Shown one piece after another: positions 3,779-64,000 of a DNA stretch of 64,000 bases (within the stretch, counting starts at the first letter, position 1; every line of letters begins with the position of its first letter). The notes under the pieces are model-generated. The model was not told the DNA's origin, searched no databases, and saw only the letters and a program-made list of their open reading frames with translations. Source of the DNA: an uncultured Nitrospirota bacterium (GTDB lineage Bacteria; Nitrospirota; Nitrospiria; Nitrospirales; UBA8639); the NCBI GenBank assembly GCA_942491685.1, contig CALOBY010000004.1, forward strand, positions 425,965 through 489,964. The letters run 5' to 3'. Position numbers and translations under genes: made by a program.

Positions 3779-3790
3779 GGAGCCGGCTCA

Positions 3791-4999: not shown

Positions 5000-5002
5000 G
5001 TA

Positions 5003-12851: not shown

Positions 12852-12860
12852 TTTTACTCA

Positions 12861-15781: not shown

Positions 15782-16097
15782 TCTTCTCCAGTTTCTTTTT
15801 TTTCTCTTTCCCTAATTTTTCCTCACCGTTAAAATCTGCTTCCTTTTCCTGCGCGATCCCATGAAAATGTGTGCATACTCGTAGACTGTGAACCCCGTCC
15901 CAATCGAAGAATTGATTGACGCTTGGCGCAAGTCTGTGATAGAAAGCCAGGTCTTTTTTCGGGGCCAAGAGGTCCGGTAATACATGGGTGTCCTTGGGTT
16001 ATTTGAGGTCGTAGGGAAAGGGCATTTTGAAAAGAGGGCATCAGATTTCACTGTTGGCAATTATTACGAACCAAACTTATTCCGTAGGCGAGGGGGA

Positions 16098-16640: not shown

Positions 16641-16697
16641 TCAAAGCCAAACAGTAATCCCAAGAACGAGAAGAACGATAAAGGAGGGGGACGACCC

Positions 16698-18383: not shown

Positions 18384-18439
18384 AATCGCCTTTTCCTGAG
18401 GAAGCTAATAAGTCTGTATTTTGAAAGAAAAGGAATCGT

Positions 18440-19252: not shown

Positions 19253-19274
19253 GAACGTGTAGGACCAGCGAAAT

Positions 19275-20219: not shown

Positions 20220-20256
20220 TTAGTCTTCACCAAAACTACATCAAGGATATTTATTC

Positions 20257-21369: not shown

Positions 21370-21383
21370 TTTATTGGACGGCT

Positions 21384-22253
21384 ATGTCGAATACTAAATT
21401 GGGACTCCTCGTTTTTTGGCCAACATTTTGGACTGGATTTCCACTGAAGTTGGTTTTTGCCATGCTAATGTTGGCTGCACATATGCACCCATGGTCCGGT
21501 TCAGGGCTTTTTTTGCTGCTACTCATTTCTATTCCAATAGACATTTGGGCATTGGGGCTTTGCGCAAAAACTGTATTTATTGATCGATTGAATGTTGATC
21601 CACAGCCGGGGTTTGCCGCCAATCTCTGGGCGCGCTGGGCTGTTTTTACGGCTATTGCTCTGCCTTTAATCAAGATGGTCGTTTCCGGTGCAACGGAGAT
21701 TTCAAAATCGGTAACCTCCAGTATTGTACATTTTATCAAGGAAAGTATTTGGCCTACGCTGCCTGTCGCCGAACAAATTACCCTTGAATTAGTCATGTGG
21801 GGAAGCGCCGCATCGGTTGTACTCATTGTCTGTATCATGGGTTGGCTGTTTGGTCTTGGCTGGCTTACTCAACCCTTTGTGAGAAATGCGAAATCTTTAG
21901 ATGGTACCGAAGCTGAGCGAGCAAATTTCTGGGATGCTCTTCGGATCCCCGCAGATCAGCCCTTATTGTTAACAGCTTTCACAGGGGCGGGAGTGGTTTT
22001 GGTTTTTGTCTTCTGGTCTTTGTTGCCCGCATCAACTCCTCATCCGCATGAAGAGTATGAATTTATTTCAAAGGGATCAAAAGCAGAGAGGGTGGAAACA
22101 AGGAAGGTTTTAAAAGAAGCGGAGCAAGTGCTTGCAAAAGCCGAACTGGTTGTGAAAAAGCTTGAGGAAGAAAAAAGTGGTGAATCAAAAGAGTCAAGTG
22201 GGGAAAAGGTAAAAGAACCGGTGGCAGAAGAAGCGCCGGAAAAAAAGAAATAG
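21384..22253 (+). CDS. Multi-pass membrane protein of unknown function within the respiratory cluster
   Basis: About five to six hydrophobic segments, a PHPH motif and a charged C-terminal tail; co-oriented with its neighbours. Confidence 0.7.
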   Translation: MSNTKLGLLVFWPTFWTGFPLKLVFAMLMLAAHMHPWSGSGLFLLLLISIPIDIWALGLCAKTVFIDRLNVDPQPGFAANLWARWAVFTAIALPLIKMVVSGATEISKSVTSSIVHFIKESIWPTLPVAEQITLELVMWGSAASVVLIVCIMGWLFGLGWLTQPFVRNAKSLDGTEAERANFWDALRIPADQPLLLTAFTGAGVVLVFVFWSLLPASTPHPHEEYEFISKGSKAERVETRKVLKEAEQVLAKAELVVKKLEEEKSGESKESSGEKVKEPVAEEAPEKKK

Positions 22254-22365
22254 CTAAAATACGGACTGCTAAAAACGTACTAAGCTAGCAAGTGAAATAC
22301 GGCATAGGGTATAAAGGTCTGAAATTGGTTCTTGGGTCTAAAAATGAACGAGTGAAGGGGGCCTA

Positions 22366-24249: not shown

Positions 24250-24255
24250 GGCATT

Positions 24256-24888
24256 ATGAGTGAAGTTGCGTTACTCCAAATAATTGGTCTCTGCGTTGTC
24301 GGAGCCGGAATCCTTATACTCCTGTTTATTAAAGGGATGTTTCTTCGTGTAGTGGGTTTTGTGGCTATGGTGTTAGGGATGTTTAGCTTGATTGCGCTAG
24401 GGGTTCCGCAAATGGCCTCCCTCCCTCCGGCAATTGAAACCTTTGATTTAGCTGAAGTGAAAAGCCCGAGTGACTTAGCGGCGATTGGACAAAAAATATT
24501 TTTTAGTAAAGGGCAGTGTGCCCTCTGTCATTCAATTGGGCCAAGTGAGTCAGCCCGGTGCCCAGATTTGAATGGGATTGGAGCGAAGTTGGCGCCAGAG
24601 TTTATCTATGAAAGTCTGACGCAACCACAGGCCTATATATATTTGGACTTCCGGCATGCAACCAAGCCAGAGGAGTATCCTGCACGTATGCCCCATATCG
24701 ATAAAGATCCTATTGGGCTGACTAAACCTGAAATTTATTCTGTGATTGCATTTCTCCAAAAGATGAGTGGAGAGCCAATTAGTATAAAAGTAGAAGATAT
24801 TATGGAATCTGAGGCCGTGAAGGTTGCGTCAATTGCAGATTCTGCTTCGAAGAATTCTGAGTCCCAAGAGAGTGTCGTAGCTCCGTAA
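24256..24888 (+). CDS. Membrane-anchored monoheme cytochrome c
   Basis: Two N-terminal TM helices, CALCH, RCPDL and ARMP. Confidence 0.88.
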   Translation: MSEVALLQIIGLCVVGAGILILLFIKGMFLRVVGFVAMVLGMFSLIALGVPQMASLPPAIETFDLAEVKSPSDLAAIGQKIFFSKGQCALCHSIGPSESARCPDLNGIGAKLAPEFIYESLTQPQAYIYLDFRHATKPEEYPARMPHIDKDPIGLTKPEIYSVIAFLQKMSGEPISIKVEDIMESEAVKVASIADSASKNSESQESVVAP

Positions 24889-24918
24889 GGCGAAGAACCG
24901 GAGCACAGGAGGAATGAA

Positions 24919-25644
24919 ATGAAAGGTCCAATTGCAAGCGGAGCCATACTTATGGCTGGGATGTTTATCTTCCTGAAGTTTATTCTTCCCATGGTGACGG
25001 CCCCGTTGCCGGCGAGTTTGATTTATCTCTATTTGGCTTTGACCTTAAGTGGAATCATGATCTTTGGAACCATGAGTGCTTCAGGTTTGGAGTCTCTTAT
25101 GGGTCCTGTATTTAGATTTTTGTCTGGGAAGGGCCAGTCTGGAATTGGGCAAATGGCAAGGTTGGCTGTTCTCGTGCTTTTCCCTTTGTTGGTTGGATGG
25201 CAAACCTATACTCGTTTGGCTCCAAGTGATCTTCCGCCTGCGGAAAATCGAACCATTCATCCCGCTCCTCCTGGAGAGTTCGTCGGTTTAGCAAATCCTT
25301 ATCAGAATAATGAGGCAAACGTGAATATGGGGAAAGGGCTCTATGCAGCCTACTGTTCGCCATGTCATGGGGCGAACTATGATGGCAAAGGTCCTGCCGC
25401 GAAAGGATTTAATCCGCCTCCGGCAAATTTCAGTGATCCTGGAACAATAGCTCAACTCCAAGAATCCTATTTATTTTGGAGAATTAAAAAAGGTGGTGTA
25501 GGATTGCCTGTAGAAGGGATGCCTTGGAAATCGGCTATGCCCCGCTGGGAAGTAGAATTGCCAGATGAGTTTATTTGGAAAATTATCATGGGTGAGTATG
25601 ACGGGGCTCATCAATCTCCTCGTACGTGGGAAGAAGAAGAGTAG
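24919..25644 (+). CDS. Membrane-anchored monoheme cytochrome c
   Basis: Three TM helices, CSPCH, PPPANF and SAMPRW. Confidence 0.88.
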   Translation: MKGPIASGAILMAGMFIFLKFILPMVTAPLPASLIYLYLALTLSGIMIFGTMSASGLESLMGPVFRFLSGKGQSGIGQMARLAVLVLFPLLVGWQTYTRLAPSDLPPAENRTIHPAPPGEFVGLANPYQNNEANVNMGKGLYAAYCSPCHGANYDGKGPAAKGFNPPPANFSDPGTIAQLQESYLFWRIKKGGVGLPVEGMPWKSAMPRWEVELPDEFIWKIIMGEYDGAHQSPRTWEEEE

Positions 25645-25692
25645 CGCGTTCCTATTCCTAAATTGAGAATTGTTTTTTGTGGAGAATATGAC

Positions 25693-26532
25693 ATGTTGAA
25701 AAGACTGAGATTCCTGACAATGGTGATCGTGGTGGGAGTCCCCGGAATACTCGGTTTTGCTGTTGGATTTGCCAGTGACCCCCCGCCGGCGGATCAAGCT
25801 GTCGGAAGTGTTTCTGTTCGGTTGTATCAAGTGGAGGGGACCCTCCCCGCCGATGATCCGAATTCAGCACAATGGTCGTCTGTTCCAGACTCAGAATTCC
25901 AATTGGCTCCCCAAGTACATTGGCCAGAGCGTATTCAGGAAGTCACTGTGCAATCCGTTAAAGTCAAGGGGCTTCATGACGGTGAAAATCTTGCCATTTT
26001 ATTGGAATATGAGGATCCCACAGAAGATGCAGCGGATGCAGCGGCCATTGAATTTATGGTGGGAGATAAAATGGCGCACTTCGCTCATGGGCAACCTATG
26101 CTTCAGGTTGAAGGGGGTCCGGTCAATATTTGGTTTTGGAAGAAAGAAAATGGGCAGGCTTTGGATATGAGTGCAAAGGGTTTTAAGACCTTAAAGACGC
26201 AAGAAAAACAAGATGTCAGGGCTACCGGTGTGTGGAATGGCGGTTCTTGGAAAGTCGTCTTTTCTCGTGCGCTGAAAACGGAAGATGAACAAGATGTCCA
26301 AATAGAGCCTGGAGAATGGCGGAGCGTGGCTTTTGCGTTTTGGGATGGGGCACTGGTGAGCGGAGTGGCGAAGGAAAAGGGCAGTCAAAAAGCGGTGTCT
26401 TCCTGGTGGTCAATTCGCGCAGAGCCGAGTGCGGATAACTCGATTTTTGCATGGGTCATTCTTGGCCTTGCACTGGCTGCAGGATTCGAATTGGTGGTGG
26501 TACGGAAATTGAGAAAGGGCCAATCAGCATGA
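25693..26532 (+). CDS. EbdC/DMSO-reductase type II gamma-like heme b-binding protein with C-terminal TM (NxrC-candidate family)
   Basis: VKVKGLHDGENLAILLEYED, DAAAIEF, GQPM, VNIWFWK, WKVVFSRAL and VAFAFWDG resemble the EB_dh domain; signal peptide and C-terminal TM helix present. Confidence 0.75.
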   Translation: MLKRLRFLTMVIVVGVPGILGFAVGFASDPPPADQAVGSVSVRLYQVEGTLPADDPNSAQWSSVPDSEFQLAPQVHWPERIQEVTVQSVKVKGLHDGENLAILLEYEDPTEDAADAAAIEFMVGDKMAHFAHGQPMLQVEGGPVNIWFWKKENGQALDMSAKGFKTLKTQEKQDVRATGVWNGGSWKVVFSRALKTEDEQDVQIEPGEWRSVAFAFWDGALVSGVAKEKGSQKAVSSWWSIRAEPSADNSIFAWVILGLALAAGFELVVVRKLRKGQSA

Positions 26533-27563
26533 AACCGGGGGCCAGGGGAATGATGGGTAGGACCTTATTGAAAGTGTTGGCCATAGGTTTGGCGTCAGGT
26601 TTGTTATTATATGGCTGCGCCGGAGATGAAAAGTCGGCCAAAGGTAAAAAACTTTATAATCATTATTGCAGTCACTGCCATGGCGAGTCGGGACAACAAG
26701 GAGAGGGCTTCAACTGGGATCGTATGCCTGATCCTCGTCCCAAAAATCTTGCCTCCAATGCGGAAATGTCGACTTTTAGTGACAAAGAAATATTTGATAC
26801 CGTATATCGGGACATGCGGGATACTTCAGATCCTAAAGTTTTAGATGATGATAATTATTTTGCAGTGTCCACCATGCCAACATTTAAATACACTCTGTCC
26901 GAGGAAGAGATTTGGAGTGTAGTCGGTTATGTTCGGACGTTACATGGGATGTCGTTGACTTTTGACCTGGCGGGTCGGAAGAAAGAATTAGAAGAAGTGT
27001 TAGCCGCCGCGCAACAAGAAATGGAAGCCGCAAAAGCCATTTATGAGGCTGCCGTAGAAAAAGCTGAAGCTGAACAGGCTGCCTATGAAGAAACTTTGAC
27101 AGATGCTCAACTGGAGGACTATGAGCCCGAAGAGATTACCCTTCCTGAAGAAGAGGTATTCCTCGTGGCTAATGAAAAATATGAAAAGGCTAAAGCGGCA
27201 GTAGATAACTTTTCAAAACGTCCCAAAAAAACAAGAATTGAGCGTCCTGATCTCACTATTTCTGAGGCGGAACGAGCGGTGCAGGTAGAAAAAGGGAAGG
27301 CCCTCTATGGCGATACCTATGGCTGCCACGGGTGTCATAGTCTCAATGACGAAGGGGGATTAGTGGGCCCTGCATTAGATCGTGCTGGCTTTCGATTAAA
27401 TCCGACTTGGGTCTATCAATGGATTCGAAATCCTCAAGCCATGAAAAAACATACACGAATGCCGAACTTAGGTGTATCAGATCCAGATGCGAGAGCCTTA
27501 ACGTATTATCTGGGAACCCTGCGTGCGCCAAAGCCTGAGGGGCCAGTTCCAGACCCTGAATAA
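26529..27563 (+). CDS. Diheme cytochrome c lipoprotein
   Basis: Lipobox LYG-C, CSHCH and CHGCH, acidic coiled linker; ATGA overlap with the upstream gene. Confidence 0.88.
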   Translation: MKPGARGMMGRTLLKVLAIGLASGLLLYGCAGDEKSAKGKKLYNHYCSHCHGESGQQGEGFNWDRMPDPRPKNLASNAEMSTFSDKEIFDTVYRDMRDTSDPKVLDDDNYFAVSTMPTFKYTLSEEEIWSVVGYVRTLHGMSLTFDLAGRKKELEEVLAAAQQEMEAAKAIYEAAVEKAEAEQAAYEETLTDAQLEDYEPEEITLPEEEVFLVANEKYEKAKAAVDNFSKRPKKTRIERPDLTISEAERAVQVEKGKALYGDTYGCHGCHSLNDEGGLVGPALDRAGFRLNPTWVYQWIRNPQAMKKHTRMPNLGVSDPDARALTYYLGTLRAPKPEGPVPDPE

Positions 27564-29326: not shown

Positions 29327-29401
<75 letters not shown>

Positions 29402-51052: not shown

Positions 51053-52330
51053 TTAACTGCCCTCAATTCTCACGCCGATGGTTCCGGCGTAGTTGTCGAA
51101 TTGGCTGTGGCCAACCAAGGCCTTAAAGTTCACGAAGGGTTGAATCCCATTAGGCAGGACCAATACGGTGCCCATACCTAAAGTGAAAAAATTTCTATCA
51201 GGTTTATCGTTGTTAAAGCTAAACTTAGTTGGGTTCGCTCGGTTGTCCTCGATAAATTGGACGTCAATAGATCGTTGATCATTCTCAAACTCATGAATAT
51301 AGTCTGCCGTGGCTTGCGGAACCCAGACACCATAGGACGTATTGATTGCCATGGTTCCCTGAAGGCCAATGGTGGTTTGGAGGGATTTGACAGTTTGGTC
51401 GTCAAACTCTAGGCCGATGCCTCCGCCGCCACTTTCTTTATAATCACCAATAGAATTACGGGAATAGTTCACTCCCACCCGTGGACCAACGGTAATATTT
51501 CCGATTATGTGGTCATAGCCTGTCAACGCTTGGATTTGAAATTCATTTCCATCTGAATCGCTACGGGCATTGCCCCCGAATGGAGTGCCGCCAAGTGTCA
51601 CGTATTGGACCTGTCTTTTTACATCGTAGTTATGCCTGGAATACCCTAGACTGACATCAACAAACATGGCTGGTATAGGCATGACGGAACCATAAGCCAG
51701 GAAGCCATAGGAATCGGTGTCGAAATTTCCCCCGCCGTCAAAGTCTCCATCGCGATTTGTATAATTGAAGGCGCCGCCGGCTAAGAACATGTTATTAAAT
51801 CGATAGTCTGCCCCGACCGTTGCACCCAACACCGTTGAATCAAACCCATCCCCAAATGTTGTTCTATCCCTATTCAACGCCTCGAAATTTCCAGAAACAA
51901 AGAGGCCTAAACCGCTCGGCAAATTAATAGTCGCTTGATTCCCAGTCGATTCCCCTTCCAGCCGGTCTAGTCTTCGGTTTTCTACCGTGGCTCCTAATGA
52001 TTGAGCGGATCCCGTTCCCCCGCCAGCAGAACCTCCAGGTCCAGATGGAATATCGTTGCAGAGGGCAGTCAGGTTAGGGCCCAAACCAGGAACGGCACCT
52101 CCACCGGTCAGATTTTGACATTGGAGATCAAGTTGATTAGCTATCGCTTGGTCCAGGGTAGTTGCGGCAAGGGTGGAATTCGGCAAACAAAAAGTGGCAG
52201 CTAACAGGGTGGTTCCTAAGAAACCATATGCCCCGGTAATTTTGATCAAGGGACGGCAAGAGGTTGAGAACCGAGAACCCTTTTCCCTTGAAGAAAAATC
52301 ATCTAGCGGGTTGTCATGCATCGTATCCAT
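51053..52330 (-). CDS. Autotransporter beta-domain outer-membrane protein with very short passenger
   Basis: GGAGG RBS before ATG 52330, long signal peptide, a passenger with two Cys, then a barrel (TVGADYRF, GPRVGVNY, WVPQATADYIHEF, C-terminal GTIGVRI). Confidence 0.82.
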   Translation of the reverse strand: MDTMHDNPLDDFSSREKGSRFSTSCRPLIKITGAYGFLGTTLLAATFCLPNSTLAATTLDQAIANQLDLQCQNLTGGGAVPGLGPNLTALCNDIPSGPGGSAGGGTGSAQSLGATVENRRLDRLEGESTGNQATINLPSGLGLFVSGNFEALNRDRTTFGDGFDSTVLGATVGADYRFNNMFLAGGAFNYTNRDGDFDGGGNFDTDSYGFLAYGSVMPIPAMFVDVSLGYSRHNYDVKRQVQYVTLGGTPFGGNARSDSDGNEFQIQALTGYDHIIGNITVGPRVGVNYSRNSIGDYKESGGGGIGLEFDDQTVKSLQTTIGLQGTMAINTSYGVWVPQATADYIHEFENDQRSIDVQFIEDNRANPTKFSFNNDKPDRNFFTLGMGTVLVLPNGIQPFVNFKALVGHSQFDNYAGTIGVRIEGS

Positions 52331-52514: not shown

Positions 52515-54755
52515 ATGGCTCCCACATTTTCCCCAAAGAATATCTTCGTCGTTCTTTTCCTTGCCATGTTGAATGCTGCCTTACTGTCTTCATGTAGAAC
52601 GAATTCTGGCCAAGATTCTCTCACTGGAGGGGGAAATTCCGATGTAAGGTCTTCCGCAACTGTTGGGGGAGGGGATGATTTTCTGGCTGTGGATTGCCTA
52701 CTGCCAGGCCAAATGCGACGTCTTGGGACGCGTGTGACGTTTTTGACCGCCCGCCGCCCAGCACGAACGACAGCCGAAGACTGCGCCATACGTGGCGGCG
52801 AATACACTCTCCATGATCGGGCTGACTATCAGACTTCACTGAAGTTGTGGCTTGATGCGGCTCAAGAAGGCGATGCGAAAGCTCAATATTACGTAGGTAC
52901 CATTTATGAGAAAGGGCCGAAAGGCATACCGGATTACGCTTTGGCTGCAGTCTGGTATCAAAAAGCTGCCGAACAGGACCATCGACAGGCGGCGATGAAC
53001 TTGGGCCGCCTCTATGAAAAAGGGTTGGGCGTACCCCACAATGCCTCAACAGCCTTTCAATGGTATGGCCGGGCGTCAGGGTTAGGGGAATCAGGTTTAT
53101 CGATGCTGATGAATGTAGAAGCGAGTCAACGCATCCAGCATTTGGAAAAAGCTATGGGAGAGAAGGAAAAAGAGATACTTCGATTGCGAGCACATATTAA
53201 TGAGATAACCCAAGAGCTTAGTCAATTGCGGAATCAACTTCGCCAGCAATCATCAGAGGCCGAAATCGAGCATCAAAAGTTACATACGTTGGAAGAGGAA
53301 TATCAAAAGATTCAGGTTCAGGTACAGGCTGAGCGAGAACAACATGCACGAGATCAAGAGGAACTTCATCAACTCAAAAGTCTTCTGACGAAAAAAACCG
53401 GTTCGGCGGAAAGCATGCGTAATCGAATTCAGGTATTAGAAGTGTCTTTGGCGCAGTCTAACCAGGATGCTAGGCGGGAACAAATTCAAAAGGCCATGCA
53501 AGCGATACAGGTAAAACTCGATCGACAAAAAGTGATTGTGAACGAGCGGAATCAGGAAGTCGAGCGACTGCACCAGCATATTGCCTTATTGGAAAAAGAA
53601 GCGGATGAACGGAACCAGGAATTGAGGCAGACTCCTAGCGTTGATTTAGGATTTGAAGGACCGACGATAGAAATCGTGGATCCCCCGATGCCCCCGACTA
53701 GGGGTATCAATGTGGTCGGGGACGTGCCCATTATTCCAGCTGTGGTTGGCGTCCCACGTCACCTTGCCGGACGGGTCATTGCTCCCGCAGGCTTGCGTAC
53801 TTTCACCATAAACGGGCATGCCGTTCAAGTGGATGATCATGGTATTTTCGCGATGGATTTTCCTCCAATTTCTGAAGCCCATGGGACCCTACCGGTTCAA
53901 ATCATGGCAGTCGATATCCAAAATAAACATGCGGCCAAGAAAATAACCTTGGTGGCTGGTAAAACGGTGGTCGCGGCGCCGGAAATTTCCGACGAAGATA
54001 TGGAAGTTTTTGGGAATTACTATGCGTTGGTCATCGGCAACGATAAATATGAGCATTGGAATCCACTCAGAAATGCAATATCCGATGCTCAGGCAGTGGC
54101 TGAAGTCCTTGGAACCCGTTATGGATTCAAGGTGACCTTTCTGAAAAATGCTACGCGGAGAGATATATTGAAGGGGCTCAACAACTTTAGAAAAACACTT
54201 AAAGAAAATGACAACCTCCTAGTCTACTATGCCGGACATGGGCATTTGGAAAAAGATATCGATCGAGGTTATTGGATTCCTGTGGATGCGGAAATCGATG
54301 ATACCTCTCAATGGATTCTCACTCCCAGTATTACAGATCTTCTGGAGCTGATGTCTGCGAAGCACATACTTGTCGTCGCAGATTCCTGCTTTGCCGGGAA
54401 AATGACCCGGTCGAGTCTGGCGCAACTGCGCCCTGGTCTCTCGGAAGAGAAGCGAATGAAAATGCTCAAGACTGTGGCAAAAAAACGAGTGCGCACGGCG
54501 TTGACTTCTGGAGGGGAACATCCGGTCTTAGATGTTGGAGAAGGAGGACATTCGGTGTTTACAGGAGCCTTCATCACTGTCCTCGGTGAAAATCAAGCCA
54601 TCCTGGAGACCGAACGCCTGTTCCTTGCTATTCGCACCAGAGTGGTGAGTGCTGCGGGAGAATTTAAAATGGAACAAATTCCCACCTATTGGCCTATCCA
54701 ATTTGCTGGCCATGAGAGCCTCGGAGATTTCATCTTCATCCCACAACAAAGCTAG
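52515..54755 (+). CDS. Lipoprotein with Sel1-like repeats, coiled coil and C-terminal caspase-like (peptidase C14) domain
   Basis: Lipobox LSS-C; Sel1 repeats (AQYYVGTIYEKG, AAMNLGRLYEKGLG); YALVIGNDKY; catalytic YYAGHG and VADSCFAG. Confidence 0.88.
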   Translation: MAPTFSPKNIFVVLFLAMLNAALLSSCRTNSGQDSLTGGGNSDVRSSATVGGGDDFLAVDCLLPGQMRRLGTRVTFLTARRPARTTAEDCAIRGGEYTLHDRADYQTSLKLWLDAAQEGDAKAQYYVGTIYEKGPKGIPDYALAAVWYQKAAEQDHRQAAMNLGRLYEKGLGVPHNASTAFQWYGRASGLGESGLSMLMNVEASQRIQHLEKAMGEKEKEILRLRAHINEITQELSQLRNQLRQQSSEAEIEHQKLHTLEEEYQKIQVQVQAEREQHARDQEELHQLKSLLTKKTGSAESMRNRIQVLEVSLAQSNQDARREQIQKAMQAIQVKLDRQKVIVNERNQEVERLHQHIALLEKEADERNQELRQTPSVDLGFEGPTIEIVDPPMPPTRGINVVGDVPIIPAVVGVPRHLAGRVIAPAGLRTFTINGHAVQVDDHGIFAMDFPPISEAHGTLPVQIMAVDIQNKHAAKKITLVAGKTVVAAPEISDEDMEVFGNYYALVIGNDKYEHWNPLRNAISDAQAVAEVLGTRYGFKVTFLKNATRRDILKGLNNFRKTLKENDNLLVYYAGHGHLEKDIDRGYWIPVDAEIDDTSQWILTPSITDLLELMSAKHILVVADSCFAGKMTRSSLAQLRPGLSEEKRMKMLKTVAKKRVRTALTSGGEHPVLDVGEGGHSVFTGAFITVLGENQAILETERLFLAIRTRVVSAAGEFKMEQIPTYWPIQFAGHESLGDFIFIPQQS

Positions 54756-55370: not shown

Positions 55371-55574
55371 TTACTGAAGGGGATAGTTGAGAAAGGTCCG
55401 GCGGGATGAAGTTTTCCACTTTTGCAGGAAGTCAAGGACTTCAAAGAGACGAGTTGAGCCTTGGGCCGCACAATCAATCGCCCCGTTTTTATGTACCCTC
55501 CAGATGCCATCTCCTTCGCGAAGAAGATACATACCTTCTTCACATGATCGACTAATCCCCATCGCCTGGTTCAT
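55371..55574 (-). CDS. 67-aa hypothetical protein
   Basis: AAAGGAGAG RBS; start overlaps the end of the upstream 81-aa gene. It could be degenerate. Confidence 0.5.
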   Translation of the reverse strand: MNQAMGISRSCEEGMYLLREGDGIWRVHKNGAIDCAAQGSTRLFEVLDFLQKWKTSSRRTFLNYPLQ

Positions 55575-55797
55575 CTTGTCTCTCTCCTTTACGAAGTCTG
55601 TGTTGAGACATCGCTAAAACTTTGGTGCAGTCGGCGCAACAGACCTCTTGTTCTTGGACGGAAACCAATCGAATGTAATGCTGACACTGGACACAATACA
55701 GATATCCTTGTCCGTAAAAGCGATAAGGGTAAGTGGGCCATAAACCCTCCCAATTCACCGTTTCGATCGGGATCATGGAAGCTGTAAGTGAAGCCAT
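55552..55797 (-). CDS. 81-aa CxxC...CxxC zinc-finger microprotein
   Basis: AGGAGG RBS; YCVQCQH...VCCADCTKVLA. Confidence 0.7.
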   Translation of the reverse strand: MASLTASMIPIETVNWEGLWPTYPYRFYGQGYLYCVQCQHYIRLVSVQEQEVCCADCTKVLAMSQHRLRKGERQDEPGDGD

Positions 55798-56330: not shown

Positions 56331-57944
56331 TTACCGTTGTGAAGGCAGTCGTCGCGTTGGTGATTTCAATCCAGTGGGTGGTTGAAGTCTTTCTCTTGTC
56401 GCATTTGGCGTCGAAATGGCTGAAGAAGTCGTAATGCCATTCGGGCTCAATTGAATAAACTGATTGCCTGATCGAAGGATCAACCGTTCCTGACCACTAG
56501 TGGCATCGAACAGGATCTCATTGGTCATTCCTGATACTGAGCGATTCTGAAAGAGTGCGTGAAACTGATTGTCTGGTAATGAAGTAGGTGGCAGGTCCTT
56601 TCCGTTCCACATGTTTCCTAAGATCACAGGACGATTGGGGTCGCCATGCTCGAAGGCCACTACCACTTCGTCGTTAATCTCTGGGATCCACATGGCGCCG
56701 GTCCCGTTCCCGGTCGCCAGCTGCGCCACTCGGACCCAGCCCGCGTCCCCTTCCGTCTGGTTGCTGAAGGCCGGGTTTCGCCAGGGGAACCGTACGCGCA
56801 CCCGACCAAATTCATCCACGTGCTTCGACTCTCCTTGTGGCCCAACCACGATTCCAGGCAGGGCGCCGGCAATCTTGGGCCGTGGCGTCCCGGGAGCCGG
56901 GCGAAAAATAATGTTAGCAGGTAGGCAGGTAAATGAATTGTGGTAGCCTTTTGGCGTACTGTGATGTTCCACACCAGTAATCACATATTCCTGATTGAAA
57001 TCCTTGCGTGGGTGTCTGGTCATTGAGAACCGGTAGCCAGCCCGCATGTGCATGTAGGTGGATGTTCCTCCACAAGATTGCCCTTCCGTGACTCGTGCTG
57101 CTAACCGTGTGGTGGCAAACTGCTGTGACTCTTGGGGTGTGTCCACTGCGGCGGGGAACACCCCTTCCACTAAATCACGAAAGAATGGAGATTGAGCCGT
57201 GGCCGTCAAATTGACATTCGGAGTTTTCCAATGGACATCTCCAGCTTGAATCCGGCCGGAATGGAGAGCCAACCCTCGCGAAAAGGACGTGATGGATGGA
57301 CCCTTGGGAGACGCAAACATCAATTGGCCTGGAGATAAAATGGGGAAGGCGGTGTTGGAATCACCTAAGACCACCTTCACATCGGGGCCGGAAGGTTCAA
57401 AATGATAGTGAATCCCTTCGTTCTCTAAAAGCCGGGAAAAGTAGGTGAAATCACTTTCCTGATATTGAATAGAAATTTCTCTAGATGAACCTGAGCCTCC
57501 GAGTCGTATTTCAAAATCCGAAATCCCGGCGTCATTCATCACGATAGTCATAATTTGTACCGCATTCATGTCGGCAAAGGTGCGACTGGTCATGCGATAG
57601 GACAGCCGTTTCAGTGGAGGCACTAAATGTAGGCGATACTGGCCTTGTCGACCTGTTGCACCAGACTGTTCGATGGTCTCGATCATGCCTTCTACCGTCC
57701 GACCTTTGGCCACTGTGAGCTTCAAGACTTGGCCTACAATATTGGCAAAGTTTAAGGCTGGATGTGGAACAGATACTTCAAGATCAAACCTAAACGGTTG
57801 TGAAATATGCTCTGTGCCGGAAAATTGCACAACGCGAGCTTGAGATAGAGCGGCCAAGTCAGAATTTGTGGCGGCCAGCACATTTAAGGGCAGGCCAAGG
57901 ACGAGGGCAGTCAGTCTCAAGATCCAGAATATTTTCGTTTTCAT
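56331..57944 (-). CDS. vgrG: VgrG-like spike hub protein (gp27-like plus gp5 OB-fold) with N-terminal signal peptide and truncated C-terminus
   Basis: GTEHISQPFRFDL, QYQESDFTYFSRLLENEGIHYHF, DEFGRVRVRFPW, WVRVAQ, PEINDEVVVAFEHGDPNRPVILG and NEILFD..SGQERL. N-terminus MKTKIFWILRLTALVLGLPLNVLA|A. Confidence 0.9.
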   Translation of the reverse strand: MKTKIFWILRLTALVLGLPLNVLAATNSDLAALSQARVVQFSGTEHISQPFRFDLEVSVPHPALNFANIVGQVLKLTVAKGRTVEGMIETIEQSGATGRQGQYRLHLVPPLKRLSYRMTSRTFADMNAVQIMTIVMNDAGISDFEIRLGGSGSSREISIQYQESDFTYFSRLLENEGIHYHFEPSGPDVKVVLGDSNTAFPILSPGQLMFASPKGPSITSFSRGLALHSGRIQAGDVHWKTPNVNLTATAQSPFFRDLVEGVFPAAVDTPQESQQFATTRLAARVTEGQSCGGTSTYMHMRAGYRFSMTRHPRKDFNQEYVITGVEHHSTPKGYHNSFTCLPANIIFRPAPGTPRPKIAGALPGIVVGPQGESKHVDEFGRVRVRFPWRNPAFSNQTEGDAGWVRVAQLATGNGTGAMWIPEINDEVVVAFEHGDPNRPVILGNMWNGKDLPPTSLPDNQFHALFQNRSVSGMTNEILFDATSGQERLILRSGNQFIQLSPNGITTSSAISTPNATRERLQPPTGLKSPTRRLPSQR

Positions 57945-58010: not shown

Positions 58011-58973
58011 TTACTTATCCCAGAGGTCACACACGAACCTGGTGCTGTCGATATAAATGCCACGCTTCCCGCGAAAGGCTTTGCCGACTTTTCCGGAAGG
58101 GCAGAAAAAGTTACCTGAGGGGGAGCTACTAAAATTTCCAATTACTTTGCATCTGCCCCCGGTACAACTTACGCTTTCCGAATAAATTGTCGCTTTTTGG
58201 CTTTGATTCCATTGACTACAGAATAAAAGAATTCCATTGACGAACTGGCCGGAAAAACCCTTGACTCCCTGAACGACCTTGCCATTTTCACAACGACCAA
58301 CTTGAGCAATTCCCCCACTACCCCCAACCGGTCCTCTGGTGAATTCATTTCCCAAAGCCCCGGTTTGAGAGTTTACTTGTTGACAAATGATTCCCAGAGC
58401 ATCCAACCACATTCCGCTTTTGTAAATTCCCCCAACCATGACGGAGCCACTGCCACAATCGAGATTATACGAATAGTTACCTCCTCCCCCTCCAAAAAGG
58501 GGGGTGGAGTATTCCGTCGAGGCGGTCCTTTGGGTGGAGGAAAGCGTTTTTAGGCGTTGAATGGTGAAAAGCGAAAGAGTGCCTCTGGAGCGAATACCAC
58601 TATAGGTGCCGATCGCTTCCAACCGCTTTCCATCAGGAATCAACAAGGCAAGGTGGTAGGTGTCAGGTTGGTCTCCCTCAGCCGAAATCGCCAAAGGAGC
58701 GGTGAGCGATTCTTCATGGGTCGCCGACTGCGCTTCCAAGAGCAACGAATCCACCGCCTGTCCTTCGCTCGGGGTGACCCGCAGCCATTTGTCAGCCGCA
58801 CCCACGGCATAGGTACCGGCGTCGAGCACAATGTTGCTGCCTTCGGCATTCAGAAAATGCACCGGTTGATCCAAAGTGATGCTGGTGTCGGCTAGGGCTG
58901 TGGGAATGTCAGCCAGAAACCACGCCAGGAACGCGCTGGCCAGAGACAAGTAAAAGGGAAGTGTCTGTCGCAT
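58011..58973 (-). CDS. Secreted protein: shared N-terminal domain plus Cys-containing beta-prism (jacalin/VMO-I-like) domain
   Basis: Signal peptide, LDQPVHFL...GTYSGIRSRG, then three repeats of G.GG...C..G.V..G...G..(LD/VN/ID)...C. Confidence 0.8.
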   Translation of the reverse strand: MRQTLPFYLSLASAFLAWFLADIPTALADTSITLDQPVHFLNAEGSNIVLDAGTYAVGAADKWLRVTPSEGQAVDSLLLEAQSATHEESLTAPLAISAEGDQPDTYHLALLIPDGKRLEAIGTYSGIRSRGTLSLFTIQRLKTLSSTQRTASTEYSTPLFGGGGGNYSYNLDCGSGSVMVGGIYKSGMWLDALGIICQQVNSQTGALGNEFTRGPVGGSGGIAQVGRCENGKVVQGVKGFSGQFVNGILLFCSQWNQSQKATIYSESVSCTGGRCKVIGNFSSSPSGNFFCPSGKVGKAFRGKRGIYIDSTRFVCDLWDK

Positions 58974-59022: not shown

Positions 59023-59946
59023 TTATTTCATGTTCTCAATAATCTTTCTCTGCGCATCCGAGTTTTTCTTCATGATCTGAGACATGGCTTGCTGTGCTTG
59101 AGAAAATTTGGACATGGCCGTTTGAAGTTGGAAATTCAAGTCCTTCGAGGCATTTTCTAAGGTCTGTAATTCCTGTTTCAACCGCTGCGTCAACTGTTGC
59201 CATTGGGTTTTTCGTTGTTGGTTGCGTTCCTGTGCCAACTTTTTTTGTGTGTCTTGTAAGTGTTGACGAATTTTTTGTTTTTTGGTGTTCCCGTCTTGGA
59301 TCTTTGCTCGATAGAACTGTAAATCTTTTTGAGTGGCTAAATATGATTGCCGTAAAACTTCAACCATGAGGGCATTGGCATTGAGCGAATGAGGAAGCTG
59401 ATTCTTCGATTGAGTTGGCTGTTTGCCTTGTCCCACCAGTTTATTCCATTCCTTTTGTAAGGAGGATTTCGGCGCCTTCTTTGTCAGTGATTTAGCGAAT
59501 GATTTCACCTGTTTCCTAAAGGGCGGCTTGAAGGTTTTTCTTAGATTGTGAAGGCTCATCCCACGCGTTTGAATGCCGCTATACGAGCCCATCGCCTCTA
59601 GTCCGTTATGGTCTGGAATCGCCAAAGCCAGATAGACTCCTTCGTCGGGAATCGGAATGGCCATTCCTATTGGCAACTCGACTTCGTCAGGAAACGGGGT
59701 AGGCTGCGCTTGTAGAGAAATAGATGTTTGGCCATCCTGAGCCTGGAGCCGTAACTCGTCTCCCTGTCTTTCTAGTTCGTACGTTCCGGGTGGAACCACG
59801 ACATCATTGCCTTCTGGAGTCAGGAAGTGAACCGCCTGGTCCAGCATGATCGCCATCGAAGATTCTGATGCCAGCGCCGGTAATGTTCCAAGAAGAAATG
59901 TTACGAATAAGAGTCCAAGTAATTTGATCGAGTATTTCTTCGTCAT
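59023..59946 (-). CDS. Secreted protein: shared N-terminal domain plus coiled-coil C-terminus
   Basis: GAGG RBS at ATG 59946, signal peptide, LDQAVHFL...GSYSGIQTRG, Q/K-rich coiled coil ending ...MSQIMKKNSDAQRKIIENMK. Confidence 0.8.
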   Translation of the reverse strand: MTKKYSIKLLGLLFVTFLLGTLPALASESSMAIMLDQAVHFLTPEGNDVVVPPGTYELERQGDELRLQAQDGQTSISLQAQPTPFPDEVELPIGMAIPIPDEGVYLALAIPDHNGLEAMGSYSGIQTRGMSLHNLRKTFKPPFRKQVKSFAKSLTKKAPKSSLQKEWNKLVGQGKQPTQSKNQLPHSLNANALMVEVLRQSYLATQKDLQFYRAKIQDGNTKKQKIRQHLQDTQKKLAQERNQQRKTQWQQLTQRLKQELQTLENASKDLNFQLQTAMSKFSQAQQAMSQIMKKNSDAQRKIIENMK

Positions 59947-59969: not shown

Positions 59970-61301
59970 TTAATATCCTATGGGGGTTGGTATTTGTCCG
60001 CCTGCGCAGGATCCGCCTATGACAGGACCTACCGGCACGAACGGGGGTGCAAAGGAGGGTACGGGCCCAGAACCCATGACGTTCATCAACTGGCATCCAC
60101 TGAGACAGGTTGCATGTCGTCCACCGATATCCGTGGCGAACCCCTGGACGGCAATCTTGGCTTCTTTGTCGCTCGATGGGACGCCTAATCGAGATAAAAC
60201 CTTTTTAGCTAAAAGGGGTGGCGTCATCGCTTTCGTTCCAGCGGAGGGCATCGACGAAAGAGGAAATGGAACGTTTGGCATGGGAGGAGCCTGTGCTCCA
60301 GGAAAGGCTGTAAATGCCGGATACATGGGAAGGCCAGGGATGATAACGTTCTTCGCCCAAAGGTTCCACGTTTCTTTGAAAGCCTGGTCCCAACCATCAG
60401 CTACGGATTTAGACGCGCCTGCCGCCTTCAACGCTTTTGATATTTTGCCCTGAAACGAGTATCGGCTTTTCAGGACACCGGGTGTTCCGATGGCCGATAC
60501 CGCCATGACCTTACAATAGTTTCTATCGATATAGGCCTGACTGAGCCAGGTTGCTGCCTCCGCTCGGGCTGCAGCAATGGCCGTTTGACTCCACAGAGTC
60601 CATTTCCCGGATCCGCCGGTCACGGTTTGTCTGGCTTTCTGAATTCCACTCTTCACATTTGATACGACCTGGCTGGTTTTTTTCTCAACGGCTTTCTTGA
60701 CTTCAAGCGCGGCTTTTCTGGAATTCTGAAGACCTTGTTTCGCGGATGATGCCGCCCTTTGGGTATGTTGTTGTGCTTGTTTTGTCGCTTTTTGTGCGGA
60801 ACTTTTGGCTTGTGAAGCGGCCTTCTTTGCCGTGGACTTGGCTTTCTTATGGGCTTGTTTAGCCTTTTTCTTCACGTTGTTCACGGCATTGTTAAAAAAT
60901 CCCCTCTGTCTAATGCCACTAAAGGTTCCTGTTGATTCCAAACTTTCACCGTTTGGCAGTAACAAAATGATGTGGTGAAGATCCTGACTATCGTCATCGG
61001 TACCTGAGACTGACAAGGCCAACGGCTCTGGTAGTTCTAGCTCATGTGTGCCTTTGTTGGCCTCAATGAGGACGGCGTCATGACGTTCACCGGACATCAG
61101 GCGAATCCATTCTTCAGCCGGCTCAATGCCATACGTACCGGCCTTGACTACTAGATCACTCCCATCGGGTGCCAAAAAATGTACAGGGATGTCCAGTTTA
61201 ATCGTGGTAAGAGGATCCCGTAATGAGGCTGCTGATTTTCCCGTGGTGCTGAACAAAGCGAACGTTACCAAAATAGTAGAAAGAAATTTGAATTTTTTCA
61301 T
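59970..61301 (-). CDS. Secreted protein: shared N-terminal domain, basic helical linker and Pro-rich unknown C-terminal domain
   Basis: GAGG RBS at ATG 61301, signal peptide, LDIPVHFL...GTFSGIRQRG, K/A/Q linker, C-terminal PGLPMYPAF...GPVPSFAPPFVPVGPVIGG. Confidence 0.8.
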   Translation of the reverse strand: MKKFKFLSTILVTFALFSTTGKSAASLRDPLTTIKLDIPVHFLAPDGSDLVVKAGTYGIEPAEEWIRLMSGERHDAVLIEANKGTHELELPEPLALSVSGTDDDSQDLHHIILLLPNGESLESTGTFSGIRQRGFFNNAVNNVKKKAKQAHKKAKSTAKKAASQAKSSAQKATKQAQQHTQRAASSAKQGLQNSRKAALEVKKAVEKKTSQVVSNVKSGIQKARQTVTGGSGKWTLWSQTAIAAARAEAATWLSQAYIDRNYCKVMAVSAIGTPGVLKSRYSFQGKISKALKAAGASKSVADGWDQAFKETWNLWAKNVIIPGLPMYPAFTAFPGAQAPPMPNVPFPLSSMPSAGTKAMTPPLLAKKVLSRLGVPSSDKEAKIAVQGFATDIGGRHATCLSGCQLMNVMGSGPVPSFAPPFVPVGPVIGGSCAGGQIPTPIGY

Positions 61302-63365
61302 GGTTGTGACCTCTTGGCTCATACGGACATAAGGATAAGGTGTGTTTCAGCGCACCGCAGCTTCTGCGAGCTGCACGACACTTTGGTTGTAACGCTCCAA
61401 GGCTTTCCGAGTATCCTCCGTATGGGTGCTGGCTAATATGACGATTTGTTGCTTAGAGGGTAAATACCGCAAAAGAGCCGACAATGGTCCCGCATGCCGT
61501 TGAATGGCCGTATACGTTCGGTTGTTTTTCAAGGCATCTTTGGCCTCATCGATGACCTTGCCGTACGCATAATGGGCTCCGGCTTTCACGCTGCCGACAA
61601 TGATATTGTTGATAGCCAATTTCCAAATGACGTCGGGTGTGATTTTTGCCAGGCCGGACACAATCCCCCCGGCTTCAGGGACGAGACCAGCCACACTCTG
61701 GACGACCGTGCCCACGGTTTGTTCCCCAAAATCCAACACTTCGACAGCAGAGCGGATGAGGAAACTCCCCCCACCTGGCAGTTCACTATCCAGATACTTT
61801 TTCCCCACGACACGAAGGATTTCCATGCCGATATCGATATAGAGGGATTCCGTCCAAGGAGTATTAGGATCCAGCGCGGTTCTGACGGCATTGAGGGCCT
61901 GCCCCCGCTGAGAGGGGTTATTCAACGTTTTAGTGAGGTGTTCAATTTGACTGGCGGCCGCATAGAGATCGCGTGGGTTCAATAACTGGTCTGCCAGGAC
62001 CGCGTTCTTAATGTCAAGGATATCCCCCAACCCTGGAACCACATCACCGAGCAAGGCTTTTGTATCATCTTGCGTGAATCCTCGACTGATAATAGGGCTC
62101 TTGGAAAAGAAACGATCGTCGGAAAAATACTGTTGGGGATTAATGCCTCTTGACTGAATTTTTGCTTGGGCAATTTCTTGAGGCGTCAGGGAAAGGACAG
62201 CTGCCATTAGATCGCCAAGCTGCTTGCTTAAACTGCCAAACAAAATGGGGGCCACTTGATTGTCAAAGATACGTTTCCCTTGGGTGATGGTGGTCTGCTG
62301 GATCTGACCAGATTTTCTCTGAAAGGCCTGGAGATGTGGACGGACAAACTGCATCAGACATCGCCCCCCGGGGCCCTTTTGTGCGATTTTTTCAATGGAC
62401 CGAAAAGCCATGGCGATGACCTGCGGGCCTTGTGGTGCTGAACGAGACGGGTTCCGAATGAACTGCAGTTGTTCCGACATGATGTCGCTAAAACTCTGCT
62501 CCCATTGCTGCATGATGTCCTGGAAGAGTTGGTTCGCAAATTCTGGAGGATTGCTCGTGAATTGTTGAACCATCTGTGGAATGTTGGCCGAGGGTTTTCC
62601 CGATGACTGGGCCAGGCAGGCAAATAAGGGTTCCAAACTGAGTTTTCTAACGGCTTCTAGCGTTTGGATTTCACTTTGGAGTGTGGCGACCAGGGGATTA
62701 TTTTTGATTTGATTCATCCCTGCCTGGGCACTGCTTTGGACATTTCCTGCCACCTGCTTGGCGGTATTCTCCACTTGACGCTTAGCGTGAAGGGCCGCGT
62801 TTCTGGCTGTTTGAAATCCAGCTTTTGCTGTTGAAACTGCCTGCTGCGTTCCTTTTCGTACTTGTTTCTGTGCGTTTCGTGCAGCTTTTTGTGCTTGAGA
62901 GGCCGCCTTCTGTGTTTCTTGCTGAGCGTGTTTCGTTGCCTTTTGTGCGGTGCTTTGGGCCTGAGAAACAGTTTTCCTGGCTGTAGATCGGGCTTTCTTA
63001 TAGGCTTGATTCGTCTGTTTTTTAACGTTATTGATGGCCTGGTCAAAGAACCCCCGAGGTCGGATCCCACTGTAAGTCCCCGTTGATTCTAAGCTCTTAC
63101 CGTTTGGGAGTAAGAGGATGAGGTGATGGCGGTCTCGGCTATCATCTTGAGTATCTGCCACTGACAAGACGAGTGCATCTGGGAGCTCTAACTCATGTTT
63201 GCCGGCCTTAGTTTCAATGAGGAAGGATTCATGACGAATCCCTGGTACCAACCGAAGCCAATCTTCTGCAGCTTCAACCGTATAGGTTCCTGTTGGGATG
63301 ACCTGAGAACTGCCATCTGCCCCAATAAAATGGATCGGTTTGTCAATAGTGATTGACGTCAGTGG
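60600..63365 (-). repeat. Paralogous duplicated segment (shared domain plus K/A/Q linker) in genes 59970-61301 and 61347-63455
   Basis: The two N-terminal domains are 66/106 identical by hand alignment. The linkers align (FF.NA.NNVKK...QA.KKA.STA.K..SQA.S.AQKATK.AQQ.TQ.AAS), and DNA similarity is visible between ~60780-61070 and ~62930-63230. Confidence 0.85.
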
Positions 63366-63455
63366 ATCGGTGATTGTTGCCAAACATACGCCCGATAACA
63401 TCAAGGCTGAGACCAGAGAACACAAGAATGTATAAATCCACTGAGATCGCTTCAT
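61347..63455 (-). CDS. Secreted protein: shared N-terminal domain, basic helical linker and large helical C-terminal domain
   Basis: AGAGGAG RBS, signal peptide, IDKPIHFI...GTYSGIRPRG, K/A/Q linker, then about 470 aa of mostly helical sequence. Confidence 0.82.
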   Translation of the reverse strand: MKRSQWIYTFLCSLVSALMLSGVCLATITDPLTSITIDKPIHFIGADGSSQVIPTGTYTVEAAEDWLRLVPGIRHESFLIETKAGKHELELPDALVLSVADTQDDSRDRHHLILLLPNGKSLESTGTYSGIRPRGFFDQAINNVKKQTNQAYKKARSTARKTVSQAQSTAQKATKHAQQETQKAASQAQKAARNAQKQVRKGTQQAVSTAKAGFQTARNAALHAKRQVENTAKQVAGNVQSSAQAGMNQIKNNPLVATLQSEIQTLEAVRKLSLEPLFACLAQSSGKPSANIPQMVQQFTSNPPEFANQLFQDIMQQWEQSFSDIMSEQLQFIRNPSRSAPQGPQVIAMAFRSIEKIAQKGPGGRCLMQFVRPHLQAFQRKSGQIQQTTITQGKRIFDNQVAPILFGSLSKQLGDLMAAVLSLTPQEIAQAKIQSRGINPQQYFSDDRFFSKSPIISRGFTQDDTKALLGDVVPGLGDILDIKNAVLADQLLNPRDLYAAASQIEHLTKTLNNPSQRGQALNAVRTALDPNTPWTESLYIDIGMEILRVVGKKYLDSELPGGGSFLIRSAVEVLDFGEQTVGTVVQSVAGLVPEAGGIVSGLAKITPDVIWKLAINNIIVGSVKAGAHYAYGKVIDEAKDALKNNRTYTAIQRHAGPLSALLRYLPSKQQIVILASTHTEDTRKALERYNQSVVQLAEAAVR

Positions 63456-63500: not shown

Positions 63501-64000
63501 TTAAGGGACAAATACACTTGTGCTTCCAGAAACCACCTTTCCTCCAGACACTGAACTGGTCACATGCGCCACCGATTTGGTGCCATCATTGAGTTTAATT
63601 TGCGGAGCTTTGAGCTTTAGAGTTCCTGCCCCTTCTGCGGCGACATCTTTTCCTCCTTTAAAGGAAAGGTCCTTTCCACTTTCTAACTCAAAGTCATCTC
63701 CTGCGGTAATCACCAAATCTTGGGCGGATGTAATGGTGAGGTCTTTAGCAGTATTGATTGTCAGAGTTGGAGCCTGAATGGTGGTCGAATTTGCAGAAAC
63801 TTGGACAACGGATCTGAGGAGATTTACCTGGGACTGTAGAATCTGAACCTGTTTTTTGAGGGGCATGACTTGTTTGTTCTGGGCTTGTAGGGCACCGACC
63901 TGTTGTTTTAATGATGAAATTTGTTGGTAAAGGTATTCTGGGGTAATTTGCAATTTCTGGACGTTGCTCGGTGGTTGTTGCATTGGCGGTTTTTGTGGCT
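63501..64000 (-). CDS. Coiled-coil plus gp5/gpV-like beta-helix spike protein (5' end probably outside window)
   Basis: The frame stays open to the window edge (..PQKPP-MQQPP). Heptad coiled coil, ~8-residue repeats (TINTAKDL/TITSAQDL/VITAGDDF/ELESGKDL/SFKGGKDV), then IKLNDG..VAHV...SGS..VF. Confidence 0.75.
   Translation of the reverse strand, partial: PQKPPMQQPPSNVQKLQITPEYLYQQISSLKQQVGALQAQNKQVMPLKKQVQILQSQVNLLRSVVQVSANSTTIQAPTLTINTAKDLTITSAQDLVITAGDDFELESGKDLSFKGGKDVAAEGAGTLKLKAPQIKLNDGTKSVAHVTSSVSGGKVVSGSTSVFVP

Follow-up and report, generated by a model that had tools for sequence, protein, structure and literature searches.

The stretch of DNA analyzed here (the window) comprises 64,000 nucleotides from an uncultured Nitrospirota bacterium (Nitrospirales; UBA8639; GenBank assembly GCA_942491685.1, contig CALOBY010000004.1, positions 425,965 to 489,964), and the gene of interest is a minus-strand open reading frame (ORF) at 56331..57944 that encodes a VgrG protein of 537 aa, hereafter the short VgrG, composed of a predicted signal peptide, a gp27-like hub, a gp5-like oligonucleotide/oligosaccharide-binding (OB) fold, a beta-helix stub and a Pro/Arg-rich tail. 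The ORF starts with an ATG, 9 nt upstream of which is the Shine-Dalgarno-like run AGGAAGGAA. Pfam placed the hub domain (PF05954, Phage_GPD, E 1e-60) at aa 44-329 (56958..57815, minus strand, as for all features of this gene) and the OB-fold (PF04717, Phage_base_V, E 2e-19) at aa 374-446 (56607..56825), and the NCBIfam VgrG model TIGR03361 was matched at 360 bits against a cut-off of 186, with profile positions 13-492 of 513 covered. An AlphaFold2 (AF2) model built on 38 relatives (pLDDT, the predicted local distance difference test score, of 84) consisted of a helix at residues 2-17, the hub and OB domains, five short strands at aa 462-506 (56427..56561; a stub also delimited by alignment with longer VgrGs) and a disordered segment at aa 507-537 (56334..56426), which is the conserved C-terminal tail, ending in LQPPTGLKSPTRRLPSQR. 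The top structural match identified by Foldseek was VgrG1 of Pseudomonas aeruginosa (4mtk, E 1e-46, TMq 0.77), and the spikes Pvc8 and Afp8 of extracellular contractile injection systems (eCIS) also matched the model (9qgm, 6j0m and 6rbk; targets of 504-535 aa; E 2e-32 to 7e-28). Judged by sequence and predicted fold, the protein is a genuine VgrG: the gp27-like hub (PF05954, TIGR03361 and the Foldseek match to 4mtk) and the gp5-like OB-fold (PF04717) that characterize the VgrG (TssI) of type VI secretion systems (T6SS) are both present, and Pfam, TIGR03361 and Foldseek agree in this respect with a first-pass annotation of the stretch, which had described the two domains as clear.

The predicted Sec-type signal peptide was read from the sequence at aa 1-24 (57873..57944; MKTKIFWILRLTALVLGLPLNVLA followed by A), and the model has helix 2-17 in this segment. 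It has a basic n-region beginning MKTK, an uncharged core, LTALVLGLPL, and a VLA/A cleavage site after which the chain continues ATNS, in keeping with the pattern of a Sec (signal peptidase I) substrate, namely a basic n-region, a hydrophobic h-region and small residues at -3 and -1. The first-pass annotation had pointed to this signal peptide and its VLA site, and the reading is borne out by the relatives of the protein, as a signal peptide was retained in all 77 clade members with complete N-termini, in the short and long groups (see below) alike. In these 77 sequences the longest uncharged run had a median of 19 and a minimum of 14 residues, position -1 was Ala in 69 and small in 75, position -3 was small in most, and a conserved mature N-terminus, A-x-N-P-D-L, directly followed the predicted cleavage site. 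Pairwise identity was 25% in the signal region versus 54% in the mature part, and because signal character has been kept while the signal region itself has diverged, the segment appears to be a translated, functional signal peptide. No such N-terminal extension was found in canonical VgrGs (<=35% identity) when they were compared by alignment. The short VgrG therefore departs from T6SS VgrGs, which have no export signal, in having a conserved predicted Sec-type signal peptide, and on this comparative evidence it is very likely that the hub crosses the inner membrane.

The VgrGs with signal peptides were monophyletic relative to canonical VgrGs in a neighbour-joining tree, which answers the question raised by the first-pass annotation of whether they form a single clade. 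The clade was also set apart by a gap in bit scores in a search of 1.84 billion representatives, in which its members scored 845-450 bits and all other proteins <=412, and among the species representatives of GTDB it was confined to metagenome-assembled genomes of Nitrospirales/Nitrospiraceae. The immediate relatives of the short VgrG formed ~35 sequence clusters at 59-79% identity in a search of 5.8 billion proteins, all of them 534-541 aa in length and with a Pro-rich tail such as ...LVPKR. Long VgrGs (634-698 aa, ~50% identity to the short VgrG) make up a sister group and have a full beta-helix ending ...KGSKITQN. Two cysteines mark the clade as a whole: C291 (codon at 57072-57074) was Cys in 82/82 clade VgrGs versus 0/31 canonical VgrGs, and C340 (codon at 56925-56927) was likewise Cys in 82/82, the mature clade proteins averaging 2.06 Cys. 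This clade-specific pair fits an oxidizing compartment and may form a periplasmic disulfide. Short VgrG-like proteins that combine a signal peptide with a basic Pro tail were also encountered outside the Nitrospirales clade, as was another group of VgrGs in which an N-terminal hydrophobic segment and dockerin-like repeats precede the VgrG core. Both outside groups (P0268, P0271, P0356, P0274, P0313, P0317, P0389; loci L168 and L169) are on small contigs without T6SS genes.

The first-pass annotation had counted about 45 residues after SGQERLILRS, with a Pro/Arg end, and had concluded that the triple beta-helix needle is essentially absent. The number is exactly 45, of which 31 aa are the Pro/Arg tail, and that conclusion stands, the model having only the five-strand stub. 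Neither the model nor the alignments place a C-terminal trimeric beta-helix needle on the polypeptide, since the strands at 462-506 are followed by the disordered tail, and the alignment with long VgrGs stops near aa 521 of the short VgrG, soon after the stub. A needle was not encoded in the DNA downstream either: three-frame translation of 54.9-56.6 kb and tblastn searches with the C-termini of six needle-bearing VgrGs and with a needle protein described below (needleA) detected no needle coding at 54.9-56.4 kb, and the sole beta-helix signal was a second needle gene (needleB) at 63.6-63.9 kb. A frameshift near 56400-56480, which the first-pass annotation had proposed to look for, was not supported, as no long beta-helix frame exists in the DNA there. 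The same short VgrG ORF is held by a second assembly (contig L001), which by blastn is 99.84% identical to the window with one indel.

A candidate for the missing needle is encoded nearby. On L001, upstream of the region covered by the window, needleA (L001 1938-2579) encodes a signal peptide, a coiled coil and a Gp5_trimer_C beta-helix (E 1.9e-15) that ends in KGSKVTTN. This gene was present in 6/6 short-VgrG loci with enough upstream flank (L001, L003, L007, L008, L095 and L112) and in none of at least 11 long-VgrG loci. Furthermore, aa 99-209 of needleA align to aa 496-630 of a long VgrG (E 1e-12), of which the short VgrG covers aa 1-523, and since the two alignments tile the long protein, the short VgrG and needleA together correspond to one long VgrG. 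This split versus fused relation argues that hub and needle still work together, and needleA probably serves the short VgrG in trans. The long forms nest among needle-less lineages in the neighbour-joining tree, by which either a needle fusion or repeated loss would be favoured.

Between needleB and the short VgrG sit four genes on the same strand whose products have a common N-terminal domain, here termed effN, and differing C-terminal domains. Next to the short VgrG, 58011..58973 (-) encodes a signal peptide, an effN beta-sandwich (aa 31-123), an SGIRSRG linker and a jacalin-like beta-prism (aa 167-316), making it a candidate cargo or receptor-binding protein. Its AF2 model (pLDDT 87) matched banana lectin and ZG16 in Foldseek (E ~4e-7, TMt 0.7-0.79), and the protein has >100 homologue clusters, with every cluster that carries a source name belonging to Nitrospirota. 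The other three genes, each also with a signal peptide and effN, encode proteins of 307 aa (59023..59946, -; Lys/Gln-rich helical C-terminus), 443 aa (59970..61301, -; amphipathic helical repeats and a C-terminal domain without assignment) and 702 aa (61347..63455, -; helical repeats and a large C-terminal domain without assignment). In the latter two (59970-63455), ~100 residues of Lys/Ala/Gln-rich, amphipathic, apolipoprotein-like repeats separate effN from the C-terminal domain, and neither repeats nor C-terminal domains had a significant Pfam match. The effN domain spans ~100 aa and ends with G-[ST]-x-S-G-[IV]-R-x-R-G, beyond which the C-terminal regions are unrelated. For its fold, Pfam gave nothing beyond a sub-threshold BACON_2 match, a PDB profile search was empty, BFVD yielded nothing significant, and the Foldseek PDB list was taken up by the jacalin domain; effN alone as a homologue query retrieved 8 proteins, and most of what the alignment search returned belonged to the 320-aa lectin family.

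The needleB gene (63501..64000, -; 194 aa) encodes a signal peptide, a coiled coil and a DUF2345-like beta-helix, its first 28 codons, including the signal peptide, lying past the end of the window. Further upstream on L001 is a tandem gp19 tube protein of 390 aa (L001 2663-3835) with a twin-arginine translocation (Tat) motif. The genes upstream of the short VgrG on its strand are separated by 23-66 nt, and the effN genes by 23-49 nt. A promoter and terminator scan gave results no better than shuffled sequence, and because the intergenic gaps are short and no promoter signal was detected, an operon fits. Downstream of the short VgrG are two small Cys-rich genes without signal peptides (an 81-aa zinc ribbon and a 67-aa protein; 55371..55797, -), which are conserved downstream of short VgrGs, and then a gene (52515..54755, +) for a C14 caspase-like lipoprotein that contains Sel1 repeats, a long coiled coil and an intact His/Cys dyad. 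This lipoprotein family was found in 16 related loci, at times with DUF4384 or CsgG-like lipoproteins, and it may be a processing peptidase for the effN linker. A known defence system was considered and rejected, as the sole PADLOC match was to a generic caspase model. A small autotransporter with a short passenger and a PF03797 beta-domain (51053..52330, -) is beside the cluster, as it is in L003, and a homologue lies directly upstream of the Hcp-VgrG genes, at about position 8 kb, in the distant locus L110; it is a possible outer-membrane partner of weak association.

To place this arrangement in context, ~37 clade loci from genomes and metagenomes and 54 canonical VgrG control loci were annotated by BLAST and clustering. 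The short-VgrG loci have the order needleA, tandem gp19 with a Tat signal, needleB, several effN genes, the short VgrG, the zinc-ribbon gene, more effN genes and the C14 caspase lipoprotein. The long-VgrG loci begin with effN and other signal-peptide proteins and continue with Hcp1, a CxxCxxCC protein, a small membrane protein, the long VgrG, Hcp2, tandem gp19 (Tat, often in more than one copy), needleB, effN genes and the caspase. Predicted export signals were present on each of the tail-like neighbours (Hcp, tube, needles and cargo) in ~20 related loci. Every clade Hcp with a complete N-terminus has a predicted Sec signal (cleavage site after ...AQA) followed by APEF[YA]VS, whereas canonical Hcp starts MPTPAYL, and the clade Hcp matched T6SS_HCP in Pfam (E 4e-22). 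The tandem gp19 protein contains two Phage_T4_gp19 stretches (E 1.7e-21), and nearly all N-terminally complete copies have the Tat motif [ST]RR[DE]F[LM] (SRRDFL, TRREFL or SRREFL), one paralog family having SRRDLF instead; the L001 copy, with an SRRDFL leader, has the twin-arginine motif, h-region and AxA of a Tat substrate. In the needle proteins a Sec signal peptide precedes a coiled coil and a gp5C-type beta-helix. The effN family numbered 51 distinct copies in ~20 loci, each behind a signal peptide, and a jacalin lectin, an HExxH domain and helical repeats are among the domains at its C-termini. Further neighbours were peptidases of the papain and trypsin families, an HExxH domain, weak phospholipase C-like proteins and a DUF4384 lipoprotein. 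No sheath (TssB/C), baseplate (TssE-G/K), TssJLM, ClpV or PAAR gene was reported within 10 kb of any Pfam-annotated clade locus, and the other 55 kb of the window had none of them either. An extracytoplasmic function (ECF) sigma factor and zf-HC2 anti-sigma factor pair is located beside long-clade clusters (L100 3682-4929, with an equivalent in L110), which hints at envelope-stress regulation.

Many of the module proteins end in a basic, Pro-rich tail (hydrophobic-P-x-[KR](Q/R)-COOH), which is possibly a docking or sorting tag; that of the short VgrG may be a docking peptide. Besides ...LVPKR in short VgrGs, examples are ...TPKVMPR and ...TPRLPQKQ in some tandem gp19 proteins, one needleA, a 667-aa protein ending ...GPRPIR and a small membrane protein (...RPATPIR). 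Such Pro-x-Arg tails are at 56334-56426 of the window, L001 3700-3835, L004 8100-8158 and 9880-9911, and L008 6470-6522.

The remainder of the window is chromosome of the Nitrospira type and includes genes for cytochrome bd-like oxidases and an NxrC-like protein as well as hopanoid genes. A respiratory block typical of Nitrospira (15984-27563, +) contains two cytochrome bd-like oxidase subunit I homologues, several c-type cytochromes, Rieske and cytochrome b proteins and an ethylbenzene-dehydrogenase-gamma-like (NxrC-like) protein. At 982-15364 (+), MlaE/F/C and an Omp85-family protein are followed by genes for an MMPL transporter, a B12-radical SAM enzyme, DXS, IspG and a DUF3463 radical SAM enzyme, a content that suggests a hopanoid/isoprenoid region. 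There are two tRNA genes, tRNA-Cys (14136-14211) and tRNA-Thr (29327-29401). A horizontal-transfer island was considered and rejected, given that the G+C content is uniform at 0.46-0.52.

Comparison with known systems revealed partial likenesses to several of them. The short VgrG resembles T6SS VgrG/TssI proteins such as P. aeruginosa VgrG1 (4mtk) in its gp27-like hub and gp5 OB-fold and in scoring far over the TIGR03361 cut-off, and is unlike them in its Sec signal peptide, the reduction of the beta-helix to a stub, the Pro/Arg tail and the clade-specific Cys pair. It would therefore lack two defining features of T6SS VgrGs, the needle and, as its predicted export implies, cytoplasmic assembly. 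The loci are also unlike those of T6SS in having no core genes or PAAR within 10 kb and in that the partner Hcp proteins have signal peptides. With respect to eCIS, the short VgrG is similar to the spikes Afp8 and Pvc8 in size (~500-535 aa) and, as the Foldseek matches indicate, in combining gp27 and OB domains with a short beta-helix, with the caveat that short beta-helices are normal in eCIS spikes such as these; the tandem gp19 partner is a gp19-type tube like Afp1 and Pvc1/5. In phages, hub and needle are often separate polypeptides (gpD and gpV in P2, gp27 and gp5 in T4). However, eCIS and phage spikes are assembled in the cytoplasm, inside a baseplate, and come with a sheath and PAAR-like tip; no genes for these were in any annotated neighbourhood. 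A further difference is that the split between hub and needle here falls after the OB-fold, and the trans needle has its own signal peptide and coiled coil. Siphophage Dit-Tal-receptor-binding protein complexes and F-type tailocins are built in the cytoplasm and released by lysis. A functional analogy to these may be drawn in that they too would combine a gp27-like trimer, a tube-like ring and a central fibre with receptor-binding proteins that have a common N-terminal docking domain and variable lectin-like heads; in contrast to them, all parts of the module bear Sec or Tat signals, and neither tape-measure nor terminator genes were observed.

The effN genes recall polymorphic toxin systems (PMC3482391), given their conserved N-terminal domain of a trafficking type and highly variable C-terminal domains in tandem paralog arrays and the caspase-family peptidase nearby, caspases being among the releasing peptidases of such systems (Zhang et al. 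2012, PMC3482391). They are unlike these systems in that effN matches no Pfam or PDB family, several C-terminal domains look lectin-like, and cognate immunity genes are not evident, the effN genes adjoining each other with gaps of 23-49 nt. We also considered whether the "T6SS-related cluster" of Nitrospira marina represents the same module and rejected this, as that cluster is a canonical T6SS with a 719-aa VgrG and a 151-aa Hcp (PMC8115632).

Based on the above, we propose that the short VgrG is the hub subunit of a sheath-less, tail-like module of phage-tail/T6SS origin whose parts are exported by Sec and Tat, a reading to which we assign a probability of roughly 60%. A device built outside the cytoplasm is indicated because the tube, needle and cargo neighbours all carry export signals. 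The subunits would cross the inner membrane singly, those that use Sec in an unfolded state and the tandem tube protein already folded, through Tat, and would be assembled after export, in the periplasm or at the cell surface. VgrG would trimerize into the hub, needleA would complete the spike by supplying the missing beta-helix in trans, and three copies of the tandem tube protein would make up a pseudo-hexameric ring seated on the base of the hub. The effN proteins, whose domains include lectins and others that look peptidase-like or membrane-active, would attach as modules for receptor binding or as cargo, and the caspase-like lipoprotein may cut their conserved SGIRxRG linker. Since there is no sheath, the complex could not contract, and the most likely role is that of a static spike or tail-tip-like carrier by which the modules are presented, or delivered, to other cells or to polymers, a role that we favour over that of an injector. 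The cargo role of the effN proteins and the biological function are less certain. As such, the comparative evidence lends support to the suggestion of the first-pass annotation that an exported hub takes up its needle and cargo in trans.

It is important to note that several observations weigh against this proposal. The home-made heuristic for signal peptides miscalled ~15% of canonical VgrGs and, for this reason, was used solely beside alignments. No outer-membrane conduit was conserved among the neighbours, an autotransporter being present in three loci and a CsgG-like lipoprotein in one, and a Pfam hunt for such a conduit among further conserved neighbours returned only the DUF4384 lipoprotein, the ECF sigma/anti-sigma pair and a weak phospholipase C-like match. 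Nor was an energy source or a mechanism of membrane penetration apparent in the module. In L003, a relative of 76% identity with a complete 4.0-Mb genome, the two needle genes have no tandem gp19 between them, and needleB is shortened by truncation to 123 aa (L003 2971-4213), so the module varies even between close relatives. Hcp is absent from the short-clade loci and occurs in long-clade loci only. The coiled coil of needleA is N-terminal to its beta-helix, which makes its seating on the stub hard to picture. There were no immunity-like genes or conserved small ORFs between the effN genes, and classic antibacterial toxins are accordingly disfavoured. Lastly, as N. marina has a canonical T6SS, such a system exists in the order, distinct from the module.

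Some of these same observations could be accommodated if there were exported proteins and no tail-like machine, that is, if VgrG, Hcp and gp19 homologues had each been domesticated as separate periplasmic or surface proteins and their co-localization reflected co-regulation only; Hcp rings might, for instance, serve as periplasmic chaperones and VgrG as a scaffold or as an adhesin base for lectins. The absence of sheath, baseplate and PAAR genes, the variable composition of the clusters (Hcp in long-clade loci only, the tube gene missing in L003) and lectin-type partners that fit adhesion all agree with it. We nonetheless consider it unlikely, because hub, needle and tube homologues consistently co-occur in one apparent operon in ~20 loci, and the split of short VgrG and needleA versus the long VgrG implies a joint function of hub and needle.

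The hub may alternatively not be released, if its N-terminal helix were an uncleaved signal anchor; the hub would then be tethered on the inner membrane, at its outer face, within a structure that spans the envelope. The long hydrophobic runs, with their median of 19 uncharged residues, and the further VgrG group with a hydrophobic segment ahead of dockerin-like repeats would suit such an anchor; Ala at -1 in 69/77 sequences, the small residue at -3 in most and the conserved mature A-x-N-P-D-L are instead the pattern of a signal peptidase I substrate and render it improbable.

More doubtful still is a mis-called start codon, in which case the protein would be a normal orphan VgrG of the cytoplasm that is loaded onto a canonical T6SS encoded elsewhere in the genome. 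Orphan vgrG islands are common, a canonical T6SS is present in N. marina, and there are in-frame TTG/GTG codons at residues 9, 22, 30 and 37. These alternative starts were rejected, as the upstream frame is open and signal-peptide-like in every N-terminally complete relative despite the 25% identity, the ATG is preceded by a Shine-Dalgarno-like run, and the next ATG is residue 87, within the hub domain. In addition, export signals (Sec or Tat) occur independently on the Hcp, needle and tube proteins nearby, and PAAR gene, adaptor gene and needle are all absent. Finally, a pseudogene (truncated or in decay) or a frameshift introduced by sequencing, as the missing beta-helix and the ~0.5 kb downstream without a long ORF might suggest, is hardly tenable when no downstream frame has needle-like coding, ~35 clusters hold to 534-541 aa and a conserved tail motif, and an independent assembly has the same ORF.

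To our knowledge, every characterized machine based on VgrG, Hcp or gp19, including the T6SS subtypes, eCIS, tailocins and phage tails, is assembled in the cytoplasm and is either sheath-driven or released by lysis, and full-text literature searches found no published description of a VgrG or Hcp with a signal peptide (Sec- or Tat-targeted). The module might thus represent a new class of tail-like apparatus, with Sec/Tat-exported subunits assembled in the periplasm or at the surface without a sheath, baseplate or ATPase, that acts as a carrier for a polymorphic range of effN-tagged lectins and enzymes; we put this broader interpretation at just under even odds. The finding has a bearing on annotation too, and effN is newly defined here as a putative cargo-tagging domain, along with the C-terminal Pro-x-Arg tail. 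A module of this kind would also raise the questions of how the complex is assembled, how it crosses or uses the outer membrane and what benefit it brings to nitrite oxidizers in dense biofilms. If the interpretation is true, these bacteria would possess a system for delivery or display that works by a mechanism different from that of every contractile injection system, and the VgrG, Hcp and gp19 building blocks would be repurposable on the far side of the inner membrane.

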